Shown in pieces: positions 478-63,578 of a stretch of DNA of 64,000 bases. A program made the translations under genes and the position numbers. Numbering within the stretch: position 1 is the stretch's first letter; each line of letters begins with the position of its first letter. Source of the stretch: Octopus vulgaris (Eukaryota); contig OX597819.1 of NCBI GenBank assembly GCA_951406725.2, forward strand, positions 48,050,001 to 48,114,000, given 5' to 3'. Under the pieces are notes generated by a model that searched no databases, was not told the DNA's origin, and saw only the letters and a list, made by a program, of their open reading frames with translations.

Positions 478-717
478 GTTGTTATTGTTTAGAATCAGGT
501 CTGTCTGGGTCTAACAGACCAAAGATCAAAAGCCTTTCAGCCATGACCATCCCATCATTTTTCAAGTGTTGTGTACCAATTATTCAATGTTTTCTTCTTT
601 AAAAAAAAAAAAAAAAGAAGAAGAAAAAAAAAATGAAGGTAGGATGAGGTTTTGAGGAAGATTTGGCTGCAATTTAACTGGCCAAGCAATCATGTAGACA
701 CTCCCGCATTGGCTCAA
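478..717 (-). mobile_element. Short non-tRNA retroposon 'family C' copy (structured 5' head, AAC-type tail)
   Basis: Reverse complement reads ttgagccaatgcgggagtgtctacatgattgcttggcc...gcagccaaatcttcctc...gatgggatggtcatggctg...tgatc...ctaaacaataacaac. Homologous to about 11 other loci in the window. Confidence 0.8.
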
Positions 718-3251: not shown

Positions 3252-3450
3252 GGCAACAGTAGAATTGGTAGTGTATCAAACGAAGTGTTCTGTCTTTGAA
3301 TCTATTCCAGGTCAACTTTGCCTTTCTTACTTGTGAGATCGATGAAGTAAGTTATGGTTTAGAAATACTGGGGTTGGTATAATTGACCATACTTTTGAAA
3401 GAGGCACTCCAGCTTGGTGTTGACCAGTGACTAAAGCTAGTGAAAAGAGG
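3252..3450 (+). mobile_element. Degenerate SINE B-type copy ending in a SINE A-like tail; a SINE A head follows at ~3470-3600
   Basis: aggtcaactttgcctttc...tactggggttggtataattgac core, then ggcactccagc...gactaaagctagtgaaaag. Confidence 0.6.
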
Positions 3451-4663
3451 AATATGTTTCATAACTTAAGGTGCAGATGTGCCTGTATGGTTTTGGGTTC
3501 AGTTCCATTGTGTGGTTCCTTCAGTAAATATATCTTCTATGATAACCCTGGGTCTTGTGAGTGAAATTTGGAAACTATGGAAGCCCATCACATGTGTCTA
3601 TGTGTCAATAGCAAATGTTGAGATTCCTTGGCTTTGCTTGACAGCATTTGAGCAAAATGGTGTTATTTAGATAGAAAGATGACAATAAAGGAAAGTAAGT
3701 TTATTCCTTATTTTCATTTTAAACCCTGAAATTTCATTGGAAAATTTGAATTATAGAGTAAAATGTAAATGAAACCATTGAAGCATGTATAAAGATATAT
3801 AAGCATTGCAAGAATGTGTGCTTGCAATTTGGAATTTTAATTGTTGAGAGAGGTTTCATAGCTTCTACAGTATACTCTATGGTGTACTCTATTAAATGTA
3901 TAACATGTAAGAGATCTTACATCAGTATCTCCACAGCAACCATAATACTGAAACTATGGATTTTACCAAAGTCTTCAGTAGTTTATTGATTGATTTGAAT
4001 ATTACACCCTGCCTATCCTTGCCTCATTGTGCTTCTCTGCATTTGTCCAAATGGATTTGGTATTGGTTATAGTTTACTTCTCATTTCAAATTATTCATTC
4101 CTAAATTAGAGCTTGTTAAAGCTGAAATATTAAATAAATTCATGGTTTTTCTCTAACTTTATTGGCTTTTACTGCCTTCTTATTTCTAAGCTGAAATGGC
4201 AGTATTTCAAGTAAATTACAATGTGTTAAGTGTTATTATTACTAACAGTAACCATGGAGATCCCTTGGTTATTTTGAAAACTTTAACATCATTGCAACTT
4301 TATAGAGAACCATGAAATACATAATTTCTTTTGAAATTATATTCATTCTGTAGTGTCTTGATTCCTGAGATGATGTAGAGTTTCATAAGTAGTATTGAAG
4401 GTGCAGTCTAAAGAGACATCCTTGAAAAACTATATTTCTTTGTTATATACTGGTTGCATTTTCTGCCTGGAATGTTGTTTGTCAAATTTACCCTGACATC
4501 AAAAAGTAAACAAAACTTTAACAAATCTTAATATGCTGTACTACATTCTCAGTTTTGTATTAGAGAAAAGTGCATGAAGCTGGACTTGTATCTACTTGCC
4601 CGGTGAATAAATTACAGTAGCTGTCTCACTGAGCTGTAGATTTTGAGAGAAATATATCAGTAA

Positions 4664-4665
<2 letters not shown>

Positions 4666-4719
<54 letters not shown>
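4666..4719. repeat. (CT)n(CA)n microsatellite
   Basis: Directly visible. Confidence 0.95.
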
Positions 4720-5035
4720 GATTATTTCGCTGATCTTATTTCATATTTTAGTCAAATTACCATACAAACAATATAGATGTACATAACAGATTATCTTTAT
4801 TTTTGTTCCATAGCATTATATACATAGACCATAGTATAAACATGTTATAGATTATTGTTAAGGCAGGGAATTAGATAAATGATGATGATGTTATCGACTC
4901 TTAACTCTCACCAAATTTCTAGCCATGTTCCTATGAAAGAAATTGATATTATATTATTCTGTCTGTGTATATAAAATGCTCTCTCCTGTCTTTTCTGTCT
5001 TTTATTATGCCCATATGGCAGATATAGAAATGATA

Positions 5036-5192
5036 ATTGTTGTTTAACTCGCAGTTCAGACCCCATCTTTTTCCTATGCTCAGTGCACCAGAGACTACAT
5101 TATCCAATGTGGCCTTTGTTTTCTTAAAATGATGAGAGTGTGATTTGAGTGATCAGTAGGTCAAGTTAAGTGACTGCAGACACCTTCAGCTC
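5036..5192 (-). mobile_element. Family C copy (internally deleted)
   Basis: ttgtttaac...cccatctttt...gactacattatccaatgtggcc...gtgtgatttgag matches the family consensus. Confidence 0.7.
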
Positions 5193-5696
5193 AAAAGAAT
5201 TATTGTTGCTAAGATATGCATCATGAAATAATGTTTAGGCTTTTGAAAAATTCAGTCTGCTACATATCTCAGCTTCTGATTGGTATACATTTACTGTATG
5301 TTACTCATATATTTTGAGAAAAGGAAGAAGAATAAAAAAAATACCCTGAACATCACATCTTACTCTGTTCAGTCAAAGCTAATTTACAGGTTCTGAGTGG
5401 CGAGGTCTTTGTTTGTTTCTTTTTTAAATTCTAAAACCCTCTCCTTTGTTTTTAATCAGTGTCCTTCAAGAAATGGAATTGAATATTCCTTGAGATAACA
5501 ATTAAAGAAATTGTCTTCCTGTAACTTGAGTGGCCATTGCTCATCAACACTAATTTTGATTTGATTTTGAAGTGCCTGTTTATAGGGAGCTTGAAAACTT
5601 ACAAAAAATTTATTGTATCAATAATTTGGGGGAACAAATATTTACAAGCAGATGATTAAAAATTTAACTATTATTCCAATGAAAATTAGTTTAGAT

Positions 5697-5980
5697 CAGT
5701 GGTTCTCAATCATTTAAAAATCTATGGACCCTTTTGTTTACTATTTCATTCTGGTGGACCCCCATAGACATTCAATGTTTAAAAATTAATTTTATAGATA
5801 CTTCTTTCAAAATTCCTATTTTGTTATTCACACATTCAGAAACCCAACAGTTTCTTGCAATACATACTTTTAATTCAAAGCTTTCCATGGACCTTAAAAT
5901 ACTGCTGTGGATCCCCAATTTACTAATTTGCTACTGTAGACGCCCAAAAATCTTATATGGACCCCAGTTGAGAATCACTC
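5697..5980. mobile_element. hAT (Charlie-like) MITE, 284 bp
   Basis: TIR cagtggttctcaa / ttgagaatcactc; 8-bp TSD gtttagat/atttagat; repeated subterminal tggaccc motifs. Confidence 0.85.
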
Positions 5981-6789
5981 ATTTAGATAAAAGGACTACA
6001 TTATTTAGTTTGGATAGGTTACATTATTTAGAGCAAGAAATGCCAGTTAGTCAGTAGTGACTAACATTCACTACCTCTCCTCAATCTTTGAGGGATAGCT
6101 TCATCTCAGCCCATTTCTCAACCTATTTGTAACCTCAATTTAGTTTCTATTCCTTTAGGGGTCCAGTCCAAGCAAGATCCCAAGAACCATAGTTGATATA
6201 TCTGTCCAGTACCTACTGATACTGTCTGACAGTATGGACTTGCATTCCCAGGTGGCAAACAGCATACCTGCTGGCTTGTATTGGTTAATCTTTGCTCTTT
6301 TCATGCCCTCAGATTCCTTTAGAAAAGCGATGACCTCCTTCACTCTTTTGGAGTCCAACATTACAATGATTTCTGCATATACCAACTTGATTCTCTTATA
6401 TTCCAGTTTTAACAGAGTACTCCCCTCACACAATAGTGGCCTGAAAGTTAATACATACAGAAGGGTTAAGAATGAACACTCTTGACCAACTGTCAAATGA
6501 TTGTTAGCTCTGTGTTGTTTTTTTTTTAATTCCTCTACAATAAAAAAAAAATCACTTACTTGAAAAATAAATAAAGGTTGGTGACAATAAAATTTCATTC
6601 AACCAATTCCAAGGTTAATTTAAAAGCACCGAGCCAGCAGACAAGTTGTTAACAGAAAATATCACCAAACATCATCAGTTGCAGCTCAATCACAAATGGT
6701 GTGGAGAACATTTTTAGCTGAGCTGCAAACAGTGACATTAGTTCAGCAAAGTTTTTTTTTTTTTCAACATTTACAATGACACACACATG

Positions 6790-6985
6790 TGCATGCACAA
6801 CCCACATACACACACGTTTGCACCCACATATGGCAATCTTCCTTCAGTTTCCTTCTATCAAATTCCCTCACAAGCAATTGGTTAGCTCAGAGTTGTAGTA
6901 GAAGACACATGCACACGGTGCTGTGCAAGGGGACTGAATTTAAATTTACATGGTTGGGGAGCAACTTATTAATCACTCAAATATA
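6790..6985 (-). mobile_element. SINE A 5' half (degenerate)
   Basis: ttcagtttcc...aaattccctcacaag...tagtagaagacac...ggactgaa is the reverse of the SINE A head. Confidence 0.7.
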
Positions 6986-7011
6986 CAATAACCTTCTACT
7001 ACTGCTACAGT

Positions 7012-7312
7012 GGAGGCACATGGCCTAGTGGTTAGAGAAGCAGACTCGCGGTTGAGAGATCGCGAGTTCGAATCTCAGACCGGGCGATGTGTGTGTTTAT
7101 GAACGAAACACCTAAGCTCCACGCGGATCCGGCAGAAGGTAATGGCTAACTTCTGCTGACTCTTTCACCACAACACTCTCTCACTCTTTCCTACTGCATC
7201 TTGTAGCTCACCTGCGATGGACTGGCGTCCCATCCAGGTGGGGAATCTATACGCCAAGGAAACCAGGAAGCCGGCCCTTATGAGCCAGGCATGGCTTGAG
7301 AAGGAAGAAACA
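7012..7312 (+). mobile_element. Full-length tRNA-headed SINE (family D) with a Meta/V-like central domain
   Basis: A box tggcctagtgg, B box gagttcgaatct, domain cctgcgatggactggcgtcccatccagg. ~14-bp TSD actactgctacagt (6998-7011) / actattgctacact (7313-7326). CpGs retained. Confidence 0.88.
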
Positions 7313-7649
7313 ACTATTGCTACACTAACTCAAATCAGTAAATGCGCATGTAATTTTTGGATACCTAGAACAAAGAATGTTTGATGTTTACGAGGCTTAC
7401 TAAAATATCTGACCATTGCATTTAACTAACCTCTTGTATACTATATACTCAAGTAGATATATAATTTCGGGAATTTCCAAACAGTGACTGAGAATCTAAA
7501 TATTTGCTTCTGTCTTATTGGTCACAAGTTCAGAACTCAGCTACAAAGTCTCAGTGAGCTAGTTATGAAATAGAAACAGATTTCATGTTTAAACCATGTT
7601 AGCATGCAAAAACAGGCATAAAATGAAACAAAATAATATATCATTATCA

Positions 7650-8078
7650 ATCATCATCATCATCATCATCATCATCGATTTTTATATCTGTTTTACCATA
7701 TTGTCATTGGGTAAATGAAATGTTATTGAGGCAGATTTTTTATGGCCAGATGGTCTTTCTGTTGCCAAACTCTTTTTTTAAGTAAGCTATTTTTCTCTTC
7801 ACTACTTGTTACATGTCCAGTAATCTACAGACCAATATTGTTCACTGCAGAAAATAAACAATGTTAGATTATGTGAATGACAATATTTTGAATTGACACA
7901 CATGTACATATGCTTGGCAGAGCTTCTTCATAGTTTTTTCCTACCAGTTTCAGTCACAAGGTATTAGTTGGTTCAAAGATATGATACAAGACACCAGACC
8001 ACAGTGCCATGCAATGGAACTGAACTCAGTCATATGGTTACAATGCAAACTTCATAATCACACAGCCATACATGTGCC
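7650..8078 (-). mobile_element. SINE A head with RTE-like (GAT)n tail (degenerate)
   Basis: (CAT)n run, gaggcagattttttatggccagatg, and a reverse SINE A head at ~7925-8078. Confidence 0.6.
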
Positions 8079-8999: not shown

Positions 9000-10142
<1,143 letters not shown>

Positions 10143-10328
10143 TTCTTTTTTTATATGTATATGGGTGTATAAAATTTTTTAAGCAGTGTTAATATGTGAA
10201 CAGGAAATGTTAAATGTAAATTAAAAATGTAGAAACTTTTCCAAAGATAACTACAGAGATTCTACATACCCCATTCAACTAATCAACATACCAATCCTAA
10301 TGTTTTAAGCACTTCATTGACAAAATTG

Positions 10329-10540
10329 TTAAAGCTAATGAGGGGAGCCTCTATGTAATAACTTAACCTGCTAGAAATAGCAACCAAATTCTCCTCAAAT
10401 CACATTCAACTTCTTAAATTGGCAGTATGCATTCTTTAATACCACTAACGAGATGGGATAATAATAGCTAGGATACCTTTGATCATAGATTTACTCAATC
10501 AAGTTTGACCTGGAATTAAATAACAGCAGTAGCAACAGCA
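10329..10540 (+). mobile_element. Family C copy (sense to EPC)
   Basis: aagctaatgaggggagcctctatgt...cctgctagaaatagcaaccaaattctcctc...tttgatcatag...tgacctggaattaaataacagcag. Confidence 0.85.
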
Positions 10541-20409: not shown

Positions 20410-20590
20410 GATGCTGTTAAGCTCACAGGTTCACCCTGATAAGGCAACCATATGATCAAAAGTATTCCAGCTATGATCATCTTGTTTTTATTCAATTATG
20501 ATATATCTAGGAGAGCATTTCACTATGTGTCCTGCCTTTCTTACGATAGTAGATGCTAGTCTGAGGCAGATATGGCTGCTGTTTCTAGCT
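20410..20590 (-). mobile_element. Family C copy
   Basis: atgatcaaaagtattccagctatgatcatc...tatctagg...ctgaggcagatatggctgctgtttctagc. Confidence 0.75.
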
Positions 20591-32714: not shown

Positions 32715-32852
32715 TTCTTTGATGCTTAACTTCAGGTCATCCTTGATCAAAGTAGATTATCTAATGTGTCTTTGTTTTTTTTTAATGATTACAGTGTTAT
32801 ACGAGGGATATATAACTGCTATTTCTCAAAGGCCAAGCACCTCATAGAGGTC
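32715..32852 (-). mobile_element. Family C copy (internally deleted)
   Basis: caggtcatccttgatcaaag...attatctaatgtgtc...gagggatatataactgctatttctc...catagagg. Confidence 0.65.
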
Positions 32853-34831: not shown

Positions 34832-35470
34832 TGTTGTTGCTATTGTTTAACCCCAGGTCAGTCCTGATTGAGCAGACCTTATGATCAAAGTAGAATGATA
34901 ACTTTCTAATGTGTCCTTTCGACTTCAAGAATATTATTATTATTATTTTACTTGTTTCAGTCATTTGACTGTGGCCATGCTGGAGCACCATCTTTAGTAG
35001 TTGAACAAATTGACCATAGGGCTTATTCTTTGTAAGCCTAGTACTTATTCTATCGGTCTCTTTTGATGAACTGCTAGGTTACAGAGATGTAAACACACCA
35101 ACATCAGTTGTCAAGCAATGGTGGGAGAACAAACACAGACACACACACGTTTTATAATATATACGATAACTGAGGTCATGATTTCAAATATATTCATTGT
35201 ATTATGTTGTGTTGTTGCTATTGTTTAACCCCAGGTTAAACAATACATATACGATAAGCTTCTTTCAGTTTCCATCTACCAAATCCACTCACAAGACTTT
35301 GGTCGGCCCAAGGCTATAGTAGAAAACACTTACCCAAAGTCCCACACAGTGGCACTGAACCCGGAACTATGTGGTTGGGAAGCATGCTTCTTAGCACACC
35401 GCCACTCCTGCACTTATAAATATTAGGGTATGATTTGAGTAAGATTTGACTGCTATTTCTAGCAGAGCTT
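34832..35470 (-). mobile_element. Family C copy split by a SINE A insertion (34945-35413)
   Basis: Tail half ttgtttaaccccaggtcagtcctgattgagcagacc at 34843-34890; head half gatttgagtaagatttgactgctatttctagcag at 35432-35465; SINE A in between. Confidence 0.85.
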
Positions 35471-36690: not shown

Positions 36691-38745
36691 ATTCCACAAC
36701 CAGATACCCTTCCTAGTTCTGACCCTTACCTGTTTGTCAAGTTTGAGAACTCAGAGCAACAGTGTAATTTGTTAATGGGAAATGTCAGCTGACATCACTG
36801 TTTTGCTCAAACAATTTTCTGCAAATTTATAGAAATTCAGCATTTACACACAAATGTGTATGTAACTATTTATATATACTTTTCTTGTCTTGTGTGTCTC
36901 ATCTTCACTGTTTGTCTATTCCCACCAATAAATACTTATCTATATTTCCCTAGTCCTTCTTTGTCTCATTCTTTCTGGATCAATCCTTAACAACCATATT
37001 ATATTTATAGTTGTCATGCAGCTAGCAATATGCAGTACTGTCCTAAGCACAGAAATTGCAATTTTTTTTCTCTGTTTGTCGTTATTTTCTCATTTCATGT
37101 CAATATTTGTCTCTTCCCCCTCTCTTTCTTTCTCCCCCCTCTCTCTCTCATACACACACACTGGGCTTCAATACAGTTTCCATCTACCAATTCTACTCAC
37201 AAGACATTAGTTACCCCTAAGTACCATGCATGCAGATAGAACTCAAAACCATATGGTTACAATGTGAACTATGTATCCACACAACCATGTCTAGAGGAGT
37301 ATTTAACACCAACGCAACTAAAATATCTTCAGAAGTTTCTGTGCCTATTTACTTTGCTCATATTTATTAGATATTAAAATCCATATGTTTCTATAGTTAT
37401 TTGAAAAACATCAAGCAGTACATGTGTCAGTGATTCAGAAGTGGTTTAATTTCACATCAATATTTGCTCAAAATAACTCTGAATTATCTCTTATGAATCA
37501 TTTCAAATATTTCTATTTAGGCTGAATTTAAGCAAGAATTCCCAGAAGTTTATTAATCTAATATAGATTACTGACATTGACACAAGACTAAGCATTTTGT
37601 CGAGGTCAGCTTTGCCTTCTGGGGTCATTAATCAAGTAGTAATCTAAGGCAATAAACAAGTAGACTCATTAAAGAATAGAGCAGGATGTCTTGTGGTATT
37701 TATCCTGGCTCTTTGCATTCTGAAGTTTACATCCTGCCTTGGCCTACTTAAGTGGAAGATGTATTTCGCAAACCAATTTAATAATCCCTTCTAGTTGGTT
37801 GCAAACGTTTGGGCTACGGTTTTGATTTTAGGATATCTTCTCCCCTTACACAAGTCTCAGAGGTTCTGCAAAGGGTCATAGATACTATTTTACCTACTGT
37901 CTAAGATATTAAAAAAACAAACAAACTAGGGAACAGATTATAGTGAAGCAGATTAAAGGCAAAGTTATAGGTAGTGTAAATAATAACTAGATAATGAGCA
38001 AAGATAAGATAAAACAAAAGGGACAAGTTTTAACAAAGGTTGTAAGTTTAATGCTTAAAAGGAAGGGAGAGAGTATTGACCTTTCAGATGTTAGTCCTTC
38101 ATCAGAAAAGAAAAAAAAAAATGATTGAGGAAAATAGAGGAAAAGAAAAGGTGGTGAGAAAGAAAGAGAGAGAACAAAATGTTTAGGGGTAAGGTAAGAA
38201 TGTGGTTCTATGGAGTGCAGTTAGGTAGAGAGGTTCTATGGAGTGCAGTTAGGTAGTGCAGTTAGGTAGAGAGGTGTGTGCATGTATAGGAGGTATTCAT
38301 GTATACAAATGGGCATAGCAGAAGCTTCGTTGGGAGTAAAAATAAGGGAGCAAAGAAGAGTTTGAGGATTAAAAATTCTTCAGAGATTTTAAAGGATAAC
38401 TATCTATTAACTCTCTTGTTTTGGTTATGTAGGTGTTTTTATCTCTTTTGAAATTTTAAAGAAATCAGTTCAAACATTTCCAACGGATCAATCATTGTTA
38501 GTTCTTTTTACTGTGCAGCATCAAAACAACAGTCGGCAGATTCTTCAAAAAACAAGATATTTTATTTGCTGGCACTTATCAACATCGAAAACCATTTGTT
38601 TGAGTGGATTTAGGATTCAAATGAATTTAAATAATCTAAAACATTGTTATGGAGTTGCTTACGTGCAATATTTTCATTTGTTAATTACAAAGTAAAAGTA
38701 GAGGAAATTGCATTATACTTTGATTGTTGTTGTTGTTCATAATTA

Positions 38746-38946
38746 GTTGCTGTTTAATCCCAGGCTATCCTGGCTGAGTGAACCTATGACTAAAGGCATT
38801 CCAGCCATGACCATTTGTTCTTTTTTTTTCTATGACTACATTACTTAGTATGTCCTGCCTTGCATAAGAGAGTAAGATGTTATCTGAGGGATATTTGACT
38901 GTTGTTTGTAGCAGGTAGAGCAACATGAGGTTCCCTTGTTGTCTTG
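38746..38946 (-). mobile_element. Family C copy
   Basis: tgtttaatcccagg...acctatgactaaaggcattccagccatgaccat...gagggatatttgactgttgtttgtagcaggtagagcaacatgaggttcccttgttg. Confidence 0.85.
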
Positions 38947-39749
38947 GTTCATAATTAGCTGGATTGAGATCAAAACATATTTCTGTATTTGTCCCCCTTT
39001 CCAGAAAACATCTTAATAATATTTATTAACAAATAACGAATGAGGGATACAATGAAATGAATCTTATTGGGTAAGGTTACTGTATCCCAGGCTTTTCAGC
39101 TTCGGTTTGTATATCCACTGCAGTATTCATTTGTGCAGTGTTCCTCAACAAGAAACAACTCTTATTTCTGTATGCTTATTTTCCTGTCTAATTGAGAAAG
39201 CATTCACTTAGAATAAGGTAATTTTTATTTCATGTAATATGATCTTGTATGTTATATTTATTCCAATTTTATATTCAAACGATGCTTTAATCTTGAAAAG
39301 GAAATATTATGTATCTAATTGAATTTTTCTCTTTGCTTTTTAACGGTAATTTCTAAGTTGTTGTAGGTGTTTAGTCAGTCTTTTGGTTTTAGCTTTGATG
39401 TAATTTAGATATAGAAACTGGTAAGCAAAGAGGTTTCTGATTTATTTTATAGTATTTTCATACTTTAGTTTATAGTATTTTTATAGTTCTGTTTATATCA
39501 TTTTACTTTCTAGCCTTGTGATAAAGACAGCAATTTTAAAGAAAAATTTTATTTTTAATTTTGTCTTAGGTTTAATTGTTTGTGTATAACTTCTTTCTCC
39601 AATAGATATAAAAATATCACAACAGTATTGCTATAGCCTTTAAAACCCAAACTTTGTGTAAACCTGATTACTTATATAGGCTTTGTATGTTGTGTGAAGA
39701 AATATATGATTAGCCTTAATACAAACAGTGGAGGCTATATCAGTAGTTT

Positions 39750-40164: not shown

Positions 40165-40378
40165 TTGTTATTGGATAGCAGGTCAACAATGATTAAGCAG
40201 ACCTATGATTACAGATGTTCCAGTCATGACCCCCCCCCTCCTATTTTTTCTTTTTTGTACATCTAGAGCAACATTGTCTTATGTGTCATATCTCCTTTAA
40301 GATAGTGAAGTGTAATTGAAGATAAGACTCAATTCAACTGCTATATCTAGGAGCTTGAGTGTAGAGGCTCACTCATGA
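40165..40378 (-). mobile_element. Family C copy
   Basis: gcagacctatgattacagatgttccagtcatgacc...actgctatatctagg...tgtagaggctcactcat. Confidence 0.75.
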
Positions 40379-42254: not shown

Positions 42255-42472
42255 GTTATGTTAGGGTTAGTCTCTGAATACAAGCAGCAGTCCTAATTTC
42301 AGCCGTGACCATCTCATCTTTTATTCAGATATAGTATATTTAGGGCTATACAGTGTAATATGTCCATCCCTGTGTTTTGTTTTGTTTTCTTTTTTTTTTC
42401 TTTTTTTGAGACTGTAGGGTGTAATATGAGGGTTGTTTCTAGCCGCATGAACAGTCGTATGAAGGCTTCTTC
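42255..42472 (-). mobile_element. Family C copy
   Basis: cagccgtgaccatctcatctttt...tttagggctata...gtagggtgtaatatgaggg...tttctagc. Confidence 0.7.
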
Positions 42473-45557: not shown

Positions 45558-45807
45558 TTAAGCCATGATGCAGCTTCTGTACTGCCACTCAAATTCCTAG
45601 AAATAGCAACCAGATACCCTTTGGATAACACCCATCACTCTTTCTTTCTAGGAGTGGGGCAGCAAAGCAACAACATGGACACTTTGGATCAAGTCATTCT
45701 TGCTTGTGAGACCTGAACAATAAAGAAAAAAAGATGAAATTGTCTAGACTGGAACATTTTTGATCAGTCAGCTTGGTCAGAACTGACCTGGGGCTAAACA
45801 ACAGTAA
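45558..45807 (+). mobile_element. Family C copy (sense; the MITE abuts its 5' end)
   Basis: aagccatgatgcagcttctgtac...ctagaaatagcaaccagat...tttgatcag...ctgacctggggctaaacaacag. Confidence 0.75.
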
Positions 45808-49615: not shown

Positions 49616-50525
49616 ACATGGATACCGATATGGCTGTGTGGTTAAGAAGTTTACTTCTCAAACATGTGGTTCTCATCCATGTGGCACTGTGGACTTGTAT
49701 ACCACCACAACCTCAGATTGACCAGTAGCCTGCAAGCTTGCAGTAGCCCCTTATAGTATTTTCCGGCATACAAGTCAGTATAATATGTAGTGTAAACAGT
49801 AAAACATCGTCACTTGTCTTTCCAAACCCTGCTGCATTTCACATGGAATTTAGAATCCTCCAAAGTTGTGTAGGTGTGTAAGTCTTTTTTTTTCTCTTCT
49901 TTTTTTTTTGCTCTAAAGAATCTAACTTTTATATTGGAAAATATAGTGTCTGTGTATGTATGTATGTATGTACTTTTTGTTAGCAAAACATGTAAACATC
50001 ATTGAGAAAACCACTTTGGGGCAAAAATACCCTGTGGCATTTGTTCCACTTGTGTTACAGAGACACTCCCTTGCTACTCTTTAAAGTGTAGTGAACTAGT
50101 GATTGTTCCATTGAAAGTCGTGTCACAAATAATACTGTAGCTCACAAACAGTTATATAAAATATTCAGGAAATGCAATATAATTAACATTCCTAATCCTG
50201 TTTCTTACTTTAGTGCATAAATGTTTCCTTTCATTTTTCAAAATGAAGATTATGGGAGATTTAGCAAAAATACCAATGACTTTTTTTTTTCTTTTGTATA
50301 TTTAACATAGCTGATGTTTATGACACTACTATAGATTCTTATGTAAAACTATGATTGAGTAATTTCAGTAAAATTTTGTTGAAAAAATATTAAAAATAGA
50401 AGTTTCATTTTTAATCATTGCTATTATGAAATATTTATTTGCTGGGAGGTTTTCTAGGGAGAGTGGTTGCTTATAGTTTGTATTATTGCTGTTTATTTAT
50501 TTTATTTATTCTTCATTCTGCACAG

Positions 50526-50621
50526 GTTGTTACACTTCAAGAGGCAAAACTATTACTGAAAGAAGATGATGACTTGATTATTGCTGTGTATGATTACTGG
50601 TTAAACAAACGATTACGAACT
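50526..50621 (+). CDS. EPC1: EPC exon: VVTLQEAKLLLKEDDDLIIAVYDYWLNKRLRT
   Basis: Acceptor cacag, donor gtaagt; 96 nt, phase 0/0. Contains the LQEAKLLLKEDD...VYxYW motif. Confidence 0.96.
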
Positions 50622-51004: not shown

Positions 51005-51399
51005 CTGTAAATAGTCTATAAATAAAATTTGAATTTGTGGCTTTTAGGCAATCCATGTAAGTAACTGTGCTTTTCATGTTAACTATTCACATGGAATTGA
51101 CTGAAAAATAGATTTTTAAAGATACTCTTCCATTTTTAATATTAATGATATTAATGTTTTCCTTATGAGCATTAGGGAAATGATTTTTCTCTCACCCCTT
51201 CACTCTCACAGAATTGGTTATGTTGCATTGTGAGATGGATCATTACAGACTGTTTACCTTGTCCTTTTCTTCACAAATGGAGAAGGATTGAGCAAGACTC
51301 TAGCAAACCCTTCTCAAAGAAAAGCTGATATGCTACTCAAACTCTCAAGAGACAGGCCAGTGTGCATAGATACATGGAATGGAAATAAAGAAAAAAGTT

Positions 51400-51586
51400 A
51401 TTCTTAAGCCCCAAGACATCCTTGATTCCAACCTTGGTTATCCTGTCTTTCTCAAGAATTATATATCTAGGGCTACATTATTTAATATGTCCCTTCTTTT
51501 TCAAGATTGTAGGGCGTAATTTGAGGAAAATTTAGGTGCTATTTCTGACAGATTGAATGACTACATAGAAGTTCCTTCATTGGTTT
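51400..51586 (-). mobile_element. Family C copy
   Basis: tatctagggctacattatttaatatgtcc...atttgaggaaaatttaggtgctatttctg...catagaagttccttcattggtt. Confidence 0.8.
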
Positions 51587-55866: not shown

Positions 55867-55974
55867 CAACATCCATTAATACTTCAAGTGAAAACTGAGA
55901 AAAGAGATGGATCAACAACCAATAATCCATATGTAGCTTTTAGACGAAGAACTGAAAAGATGCAAACCCGAAAA
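55867..55974 (+). CDS. EPC1: EPC exon: QHPLILQVKTEKRDGSTTNNPYVAFRRRTEKMQTRK
   Basis: Acceptor ttacag, donor gtaaga; 108 nt, phase 0/0. Contains the conserved PYVAFRRRTEKMQTRK. Confidence 0.97.
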
Positions 55975-56186
55975 GTAAGAGCTAATTTTTCATTTTGGTT
56001 TTCTTTTGTAAATAATAGCCCTTTTTTGTTATTTTTGCAAATATATATTTTATTGATTATTCCCATGAGTAATTACAATATTTGTTCTCAAAATAAAGAA
56101 AAAGGTTTATTGATTGAAAGTATATGTCTCTCCTTTCCCTATTTTAATTATTTTATATTAATTGCATAATTTTTTTCCCCCTCCAG

Positions 56187-63366: not shown

Positions 63367-63578
63367 TTGAGTTAATGAAGGAACTTCTATGTAATCAGCT
63401 TGCTAGAAATATCAGCCGACTCTCCTTCAAGTCACACTCTGTGATTTTGAAGTAAGAGAAGGACATATTAGATAATGTAGTCTTTGTAATCTTTAAAAAA
63501 AAGATGATGGTCACTGCTCAAATCACTTTTGGTCATAAGTCTGTTCAATCAAAATGATTTGAGGTTAAACAACAACAA
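63367..63578 (+). mobile_element. Family C copy (sense)
   Basis: ttgagttaatgaaggaacttctatgt...tgctagaaatatcagccgactctccttc...ggtcataagtctgttcaatc...gaggttaaacaacaacaa. Confidence 0.85.

Follow-up and report, generated by a model that had tools for sequence, protein, structure and literature searches.

Ribozyme-headed non-autonomous derivatives of Ingi LINEs are described mainly from trypanosomatids, in numbers ranging from tens to about two thousand copies. NARTc, RIME and SIDER are described as short and non-coding, carry an HDV-like head that starts at C and forms a P1.1 of one base pair, are flanked by target-site duplications (TSDs) of 12 bp, and have no tRNA head, while TSIDER1 resembles its own LINE in the head only. 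A fixed 12-bp TSD is given as a hallmark particular to ingi-clade retroposons (PMC3820030). R2 SIDEs and the bipartite derivatives of RTE and Vingi LINEs (Bov-A, RTESINE and the Vingi-1_EE derivatives) are described as short, composed of LINE ends and free of a small-RNA head (PMC5786205), and R2 SIDEs are reported to retain an HDV-like ribozyme (PMC3414825). Metazoan Ingi-clade LINEs have a single ORF of the type 2A-APE-RT-RNase H (Ingi-1_AC, PMC3708506). Finally, the tRNA-derived cephalopod SINEs (OR2/CORE and Ceph-SINE) are described as short, abundant and dispersed elements of the same kind of genome as the one studied here.

The octopus family analysed in this work combines the traits of NARTc, RIME and SIDER, including the head-only resemblance noted for TSIDER1, and is likely an extinct, RIME/SIDER-like dependent of Ingi. 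It differs from them in occurring in an animal, in having an (AAC)n rather than a poly(A) tail, in a P1 of six positions, and in copy number (~10^5 against tens to ~2,000). The likeness is one of architecture, in which the CGTG element and the C1 start were compared rather than the full Pr77. In contrast to the R2 SIDEs and the RTE/Vingi bipartites, the family is not confined to rDNA, and its tail and TSD point to Ingi; like them, it appears to have been built from the 5' and 3' ends of a LINE. Ingi-like loci examined here share its predicted head architecture and its type of tail (AAC or CAC), but the element has no ORF. It lacks the tRNA head and the A and B boxes of OR2/CORE and Ceph-SINE, a distinction drawn from their descriptions rather than from alignment.

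Copies, abundance and age

The features of the window, i.e., the whole stretch of 64,000 nucleotides that was analysed, are as follows.

480..716, minus strand: full-length copy (E 7e-35)
5061..5152, minus strand: partial copy, profile positions 59-146 aligned (E 1e-11)
10331..10540, plus strand: focal full-length copy with head, body, 3' part and AAC-type tail (match 10333-10527, E 9e-40)
10331..10397, plus strand: decayed HDV-like head of the focal copy, consensus positions 1-66
20410..20590, minus strand: copy without alignable first ~36 nt (E 1e-32)
32753..32851, minus strand: partial copy, profile positions 15-113 (E 1e-11)
34839..35466, minus strand: one copy in two pieces (35413-35466 and 34839-34931), with ~480 bp of different repeats between them
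38735..38746, no strand: 12-bp TSD on the tail side, identical to 38947-38958 and not extendable to 13
38747..38946, minus strand: full-length copy with a perfect TSD on either side
38947..38958, no strand: 12-bp TSD on the head side, which sets the element's first base as C
40166..40377, minus strand: near full-length copy (E 3e-32)
42296..42472, minus strand: copy, profile positions 9-162 (E 1e-17)
45563..45803, plus strand: near full-length copy (E 1e-28)
50520..50615, plus strand: exon of an Enhancer-of-polycomb-homolog-1-like (EPC1-like) host gene, residues 152-183 (E 6e-7)
51397..51584, minus strand: full-length copy in the interval between both EPC1-like exons and antisense to that gene
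55876..55989, plus strand: next EPC1-like exon, residues 190-227 (E 3e-11)
63369..63576, plus strand: full-length copy (E 9e-37)

An earlier, sequence-only reading of this DNA had listed about twelve diverged copies of the element. A profile HMM was seeded with 28 of the 30 genomic relatives of the focal copy (L018 and L019 were excluded) and then iterated on its own matches. It yielded 13 matches in the window, with E-values from 1.6e-10 to 9e-40, which cover all twelve intervals and bear the claim out; in 800,712 bases, the reversed decoy sequence gave no profile match against 200 in the real sequence. Three window copies lie on the plus strand (those starting at 10331, 45563 and 63369) and nine on the minus strand. 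Other short repeats, including a duplicated piece of the copy's own tail, occupy 34932-35412 within the split copy, and in the excluded relative L019 the head region of the element is tandemly duplicated at ~1450-1750.

The abundance of the family was estimated from 34 stretches of 10 kb, taken at round-number coordinates of the 2.8-Gb genome. These held 33 profile matches, accounting for 4,616 of 340,000 bases, from which we extrapolate ~2.7x10^5 detectable copies (bootstrap 1.4-4.4x10^5) and a share of ~1.4% of the genome. The element is ~215 nt long, with a consensus of 218 nt derived from 119 longer copies. Outside CpG sites, these copies differ from the consensus by a median distance of 0.29 (Jukes-Cantor 0.37); even the closest stands at 0.19, and the 119 thus include no young copy. 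Given the octopus substitution rate of 0.0036 per My stated in PMC13282606, and provided this rate applies, the family is roughly 100 My old. The insertion at 38747-38946 is also present, flanks included, in contigs of three other organisms, the most distant of which differs at 32 of ~620 bases. The window, at G000:C6:48,050,001-48,114,000, has 33% G+C and is depleted in CpG (observed/expected 0.21).

Hence, the family is a real, old and very abundant element. Its amplification would have ceased long ago, and a loss of catalytic activity is predicted for the present copies, which are fossils and for which no current biological role is indicated.

Ends of the element and predicted fold of its head

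The sequence-only reading held that several copies begin at a common point, with a T as first letter. The common start is confirmed by 148 aligned heads, whose 5' end is homogeneous, but the T does not belong to the element, whose first base is C. Upstream of this C, the composition of the aligned heads is background-like up to position -1, and their positions 1 and 2 are mixed C/T and G/A, as expected of a decayed CpG. In addition, the perfect 12-bp duplication of the copy at 38747-38946 adjoins the C and is not extendable. Both the background-like upstream composition and the abutting duplication thus place the start of the element at C and the T in target DNA.

The 3' tail is (AAC)n. In six of 27 full-length copies, the 12 nt preceding C1 are found again after the tail with at least 9/12 identity, compared with 0.8 expected (permutation, p 0.0005). 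In a looser set of copies the same threshold gave 6/38 against 1.5 expected, and at least 8/12 identity gave 10 against 6.9 expected, which is not significant; an 8-mer scan for TSDs gave a weak signal (z 1.0 at the boundary). No tRNA was matched in the window, Rfam gave nothing at gathering score in the window and only simple-repeat noise at E<=5 on ten loci, and a regular-expression search with box patterns found no A or B box in the 218-nt consensus. The family thus bears no tRNA-related head with A and B boxes, the mark of tRNA-derived SINEs, in agreement with the earlier description of an (AAC)n-tailed element free of these features; neither heterogeneous 5' ends nor a tRNA head was seen.

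The CpG-restored consensus head fits an HDV-like descriptor with P1 starting at position 1 of the family. The descriptor was composed from published ranges, though written after the fold had been seen. In the predicted fold, P1 pairs positions 1-6 with 29-34, comprising five pairs and a C.C mismatch at the top, next to P3. P2 pairs 10-15 with 60-65, P3 pairs 16-18 with 26-28 (3 bp: G.U, C-G and C-G), P1.1 is a single U21-A35 pair, and P4 spans 37-52 with a GAAA loop. L3 has 7 nt with U19, C23 (CpG-restored) and G24, and J4/2 has CAAA at 54-57, containing the putative catalytic C54, followed by two extra nucleotides; the U, C and G positions of L3 and the CRRA of J4/2 agree with the descriptor as given in PMC6326823. 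The resulting nested double-pseudoknot order, P1-P2-P3-P1'-P4-P2', is predicted for the consensus only.

The strict HDV descriptor, as PMC6326823 presents it, calls for a P1 of 7 bp that begins with G1.Y, and for CC/GG in P1.1. The P1 of the head departs from it, with six positions, a C1-G start and the C.C mismatch, yet lies within the range of retroelement ribozymes (6-7 bp, mismatches at the top, C1 in the L1Tc type). Trypanosome L1Tc-type ribozymes are described with a C1 start and a single-pair P1.1. In R2 ribozymes, P1 has 6 or 7 bp, and mismatches at its top occur in a quarter of them (PMC3774820). The same source lists a C-C mismatch in P1 as a cause that has been postulated for weak ribozyme activity.

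None of 20,000 dinucleotide shuffles of the head fits the descriptor, nor does the reverse strand, and a run with a wider descriptor gave 0/5,000 shuffles; the background amounts to three unrelated matches in 1.83 Mb scanned. The consensus head previously assembled by eye with restored CpGs agrees with ours, a 20-letter pattern of it having 24 exact genomic matches against none in the control, and the helix order proposed for the ancestral head is upheld by the descriptor fit and the shuffles. The fold of the consensus head is therefore well supported as a prediction.

Several details of the earlier proposal need revision. Its P1 register, TCGAGC/GCTCGA, is off by one, given that the element starts at C and P1 has six positions. 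That register paired A35 with the upstream T; the C start frees A35 and makes a single-pair P1.1 possible, so that P1.1, formerly reported as absent, is present as one U-A pair. This pair is still formed in 111 of 145 aligned copies, which equals the expectation from column make-up alone. The alternation of G.U and A-U in P3, formerly taken as evidence of pairing, is attributable to decay: the first P3 base is A in 35% of copies, a share within the G>A range of the remaining non-CpG Gs of the 5' part (26-40%). The covariation check that had been suggested turned up none among the copies. For the 50 heads that scored best out of 62 near-gapless ones, the score is 0.208 compared with 0.209 for shuffled alignments, and a run on 148 heads was likewise without signal. 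This is the outcome to be expected of neutral decay from one master, and hence neither supports nor refutes the fold.

No single copy is intact, as the earlier reading had observed: 0/152 copies fit the fold. In the head of the focal copy, pairing is broken in P1 and on the 3' side of P3; P4 occupies 10368-10383, the putative catalytic C is at 10385, and the pairs kept are 2/5 in P1, 4/6 in P2, 1/3 in P3, 1/1 in P1.1 and 5/6 in P4.

Ingi-like LINEs in the genome and in metagenome loci

Three LINE families, A, B and C, came out of RNase H and protein searches, as 3' ends that bear RNase H along with a CCHC motif and terminate in (AAC)n. A near-complete, decayed LINE of family B, L116 (~3300-7975, i.e., G000:C10 ~3,419,800-3,424,470), shows a 2A-like motif, cysteine-rich repeats, APE, RT, RNase H, CCHC and an AAC tail. 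Taken together, 2A and RNase H point to Ingi for these LINEs, judging from PMC3708506 and PMC13708176. Seven loci (L138-L140 and L143-L146, ~1400-1800 oriented) hold a young derivative of the L116 LINE, made of ~160 nt of its 5' end and ~70 nt of its 3' end. This bipartite derivative indicates that the genome does make RIME-like, AAC-tailed elements. The head of L116 and its derivative is HDV-like by eye only, with an A where HDV has C in L3. In the descriptor runs, it scored in one of 11 segments with the stricter version and in 0/11 with the wider one.

An autonomous Ingi LINE sharing both ends with the element, which the sequence-only reading proposed to look for, was not found among the LINE families, RT loci and metagenome loci examined. 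The head and tail of the element are not common to families A, B and C, according to a tail comparison and an RT-thumb search in which 5' ends were recovered only for B, and outside the core none of the three is related to it in sequence. A search with the 2A pattern gave three matches and no partner LINE, and no partner was present among 13 of the 150 RT matches listed, 80 metagenome loci, or the 11 tail-only copies of 110 tail matches. These searches score the best candidates only, and a partner decayed by ~29% could be missed.

Two candidates were discarded. A repeat upstream of L116, considered as a relative of the head, belongs to an unrelated longer family of which ~30 nt are weakly alike (E 0.14 or worse), and a 21-nt likeness of the element body to the LINE L075 (E 2.2) was taken as chance.

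Several loci met in these searches are recorded as separate observations. L117 has a weak match at 7453-7548 to the 3' end of the element only (E 0.035 with the profile, 0.004 with blastn), with no ORF similarity upstream. In L282, at 1465-1780, an inverted piece with 2A and cysteine-rich repeats is joined to the 3' part of a family-C LINE and looks like a 5' inversion, and L082 is an LTR-retroelement-like RNase H/integrase remnant among the RNase H matches. L170-L188, and also L113 at 345-480, contain an unrelated abundant repeat of more than 300 nt, the unit start of which recurs downstream, tandem-like, in several loci. The L170-L188 repeat has a short hairpin-like word in common with the P4 of the element; this word resembles the loop of the CRISPR guide-RNA scaffold, presumably by chance.

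In the metagenome, six of the 80 loci have a 2A motif, and four of these six (L189, L191, L197 and L199) have heads of the same build as the element's, 198-284 nt upstream of the 2A. The wider descriptor used here was set after these loci had been inspected, and the stricter version gave 0/11 upstream regions; elsewhere, the wider version matched 12 other sites in 825 kb and 20 in 680 kb of DNA from the octopus itself. All four heads have a P1 of seven positions, one more than the element, and three of the four start with C. Their P1.1 pair is U-A in L189, as in the element, G-C in L191 and L199, and C-G in L197, and two extra bases follow the CRAA in L189 and L199. L189 also has the same first six L3 bases as the element. 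The tails of Ingi-like LINEs, in this genome and in the metagenome loci alike, are (AAC)n or (CAC)n.

In terms of primary sequence, the similarity of the element's head to seven Ingi-like heads is not significant (p 0.07-0.71). The lowest value, p 0.03 in one of nine rows, belongs to L202, which has no 2A match and a GAA tail. Hence, the link to the Ingi heads is architectural. The four metagenome heads are natural, apparently intact HDV-like heads in their own right, and that of L190 is alike by eye.

Origin, alternatives and significance

The affinity to the Ingi type follows from the architecture of the head, the AAC tails, the 12-nt duplications and the presence in the genome of Ingi-like LINEs with a bipartite derivative. 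Of the earlier proposal of an Ingi-type, RIME-like element, this affinity stands, whereas a LINE sharing both of its ends did not emerge from the loci examined. Several marks of Ingi derivatives are present: the element is short, has no ORF, bears a ribozyme-type head at a fixed 5' end, and is flanked by a 12-bp TSD. We regard it as very probable that the head descends from an Ingi-type ribozyme and as probable that the mobiliser was an Ingi-clade LINE, and the master may, on balance, have cleaved itself out of read-through transcripts.

In the proposed mechanism, transcription of a host Pol II unit would read through into a copy, and the first 66 nt of the copy's RNA would fold into the double pseudoknot. 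Self-cleavage immediately 5' of position 1 would then release a short RNA whose 5' end is defined and which requires no Pol III promoter; on its AAC tail the Ingi endonuclease/reverse transcriptase would prime, inserting it with a 12-bp duplication. Such a release role is described for ribozyme-bearing elements in introns in a review (PMC6765202). Given that the present copies are decayed (0/152 fit), the mechanism would apply to the extinct master only.

A different role for an Ingi-derived head is that of an internal Pol II promoter of the Pr77 type, with a ribozyme that was weak or dead already in the master. The 77 nt of L1Tc are described as promoter and ribozyme at once, with CGTG at +25 to +28 (PMC4748587), and the consensus has CGTG at +23 to +26. 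Its P1 is short and has the C.C mismatch, and hundreds of thousands of cutting intronic copies would presumably be costly to the host. However, the consensus retains all five helices as well as the CAAA junction, none of which a promoter alone needs; the CGTG overlaps L3/P3 and is accounted for by the ribozyme core, and the two roles are not exclusive and can coexist. We hence deem a mainly promoter-type head unlikely. It is less likely still that an HDV-headed element was mobilised by another ribozyme-bearing clade, such as RTE, R4/Dong, R1 or LOA. Six LINE clades with 5' ribozymes are indeed described, RTE also yields bipartite derivatives (PMC5786205), no Ingi partner was found in the loci examined, and the best, marginal head similarity is that of L202, yet the readable ends of the RT loci (13 of the 150 RT matches listed) are TAGA or ATT repeats rather than AAC, and the 12-bp TSD, C start and single-pair P1.1 fit ingi-type elements.

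Most improbable is an ordinary SINE-like repeat whose HDV-like fold is a chance pattern of the consensus. Chance would account for the lack of fitting copies and of covariation, for the lack of an Rfam ribozyme match, and for the success of a descriptor composed post hoc, but it sits poorly with two sets of shuffles of which none fits and with a P1 that starts exactly at the independently fixed 5' boundary. Moreover, even the widest descriptor picks up loosely AT-rich chance matches at a rate of just 20 per 680 kb. A ribozyme-headed, Ingi-mobilised, now extinct short retroposon is the best explanation of the family, and a reasonably probable one.

In the full-text literature, a scope that leaves aside Repbase, Dfam and subscription journals, neither the family nor any short cephalopod element with an HDV-like head was found described. 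Animal examples of Ingi or SINE type may already be included in the work of Ruminski (2011) and Kojima (2011). The sequence of the family has probably been catalogued as an unclassified SINE, 893 recently active families of which are mentioned in PMC13282606, and the ribozyme reading may be new.

That a promoter-independent, self-cleaving short retroposon reached SINE scale in an animal (~10^5 copies and more than 1% of the genome) is a proposition we put forward tentatively and hold to be rather doubtful. If it were true, introns and intergenic DNA would have been seeded with initially active HDV-like ribozymes, an expansion that would rank with the largest known for ribozymes. Selection against sense intronic copies would then be expected to have left its mark throughout the genome, possibly along with a few exapted copies that still cut. 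If the master did cleave itself, a strategy free of Pol III can equal the copy number of tRNA SINEs in an animal. The predicted fold would also widen the HDV-like sequence space by its C start, six-position P1 and U-A P1.1.

What intronic self-cleavage costs could be tested directly on this family, by setting its strand bias against that of tRNA SINEs of similar age. Relative to the plus-strand EPC1-like gene, the copies of the window as a whole are split into three sense and nine antisense, which is not significant (p 0.15). As to the surroundings of the focal copy, a TA-rich microsatellite of ~1.1 kb lies directly upstream of it, at ~9000-10150.
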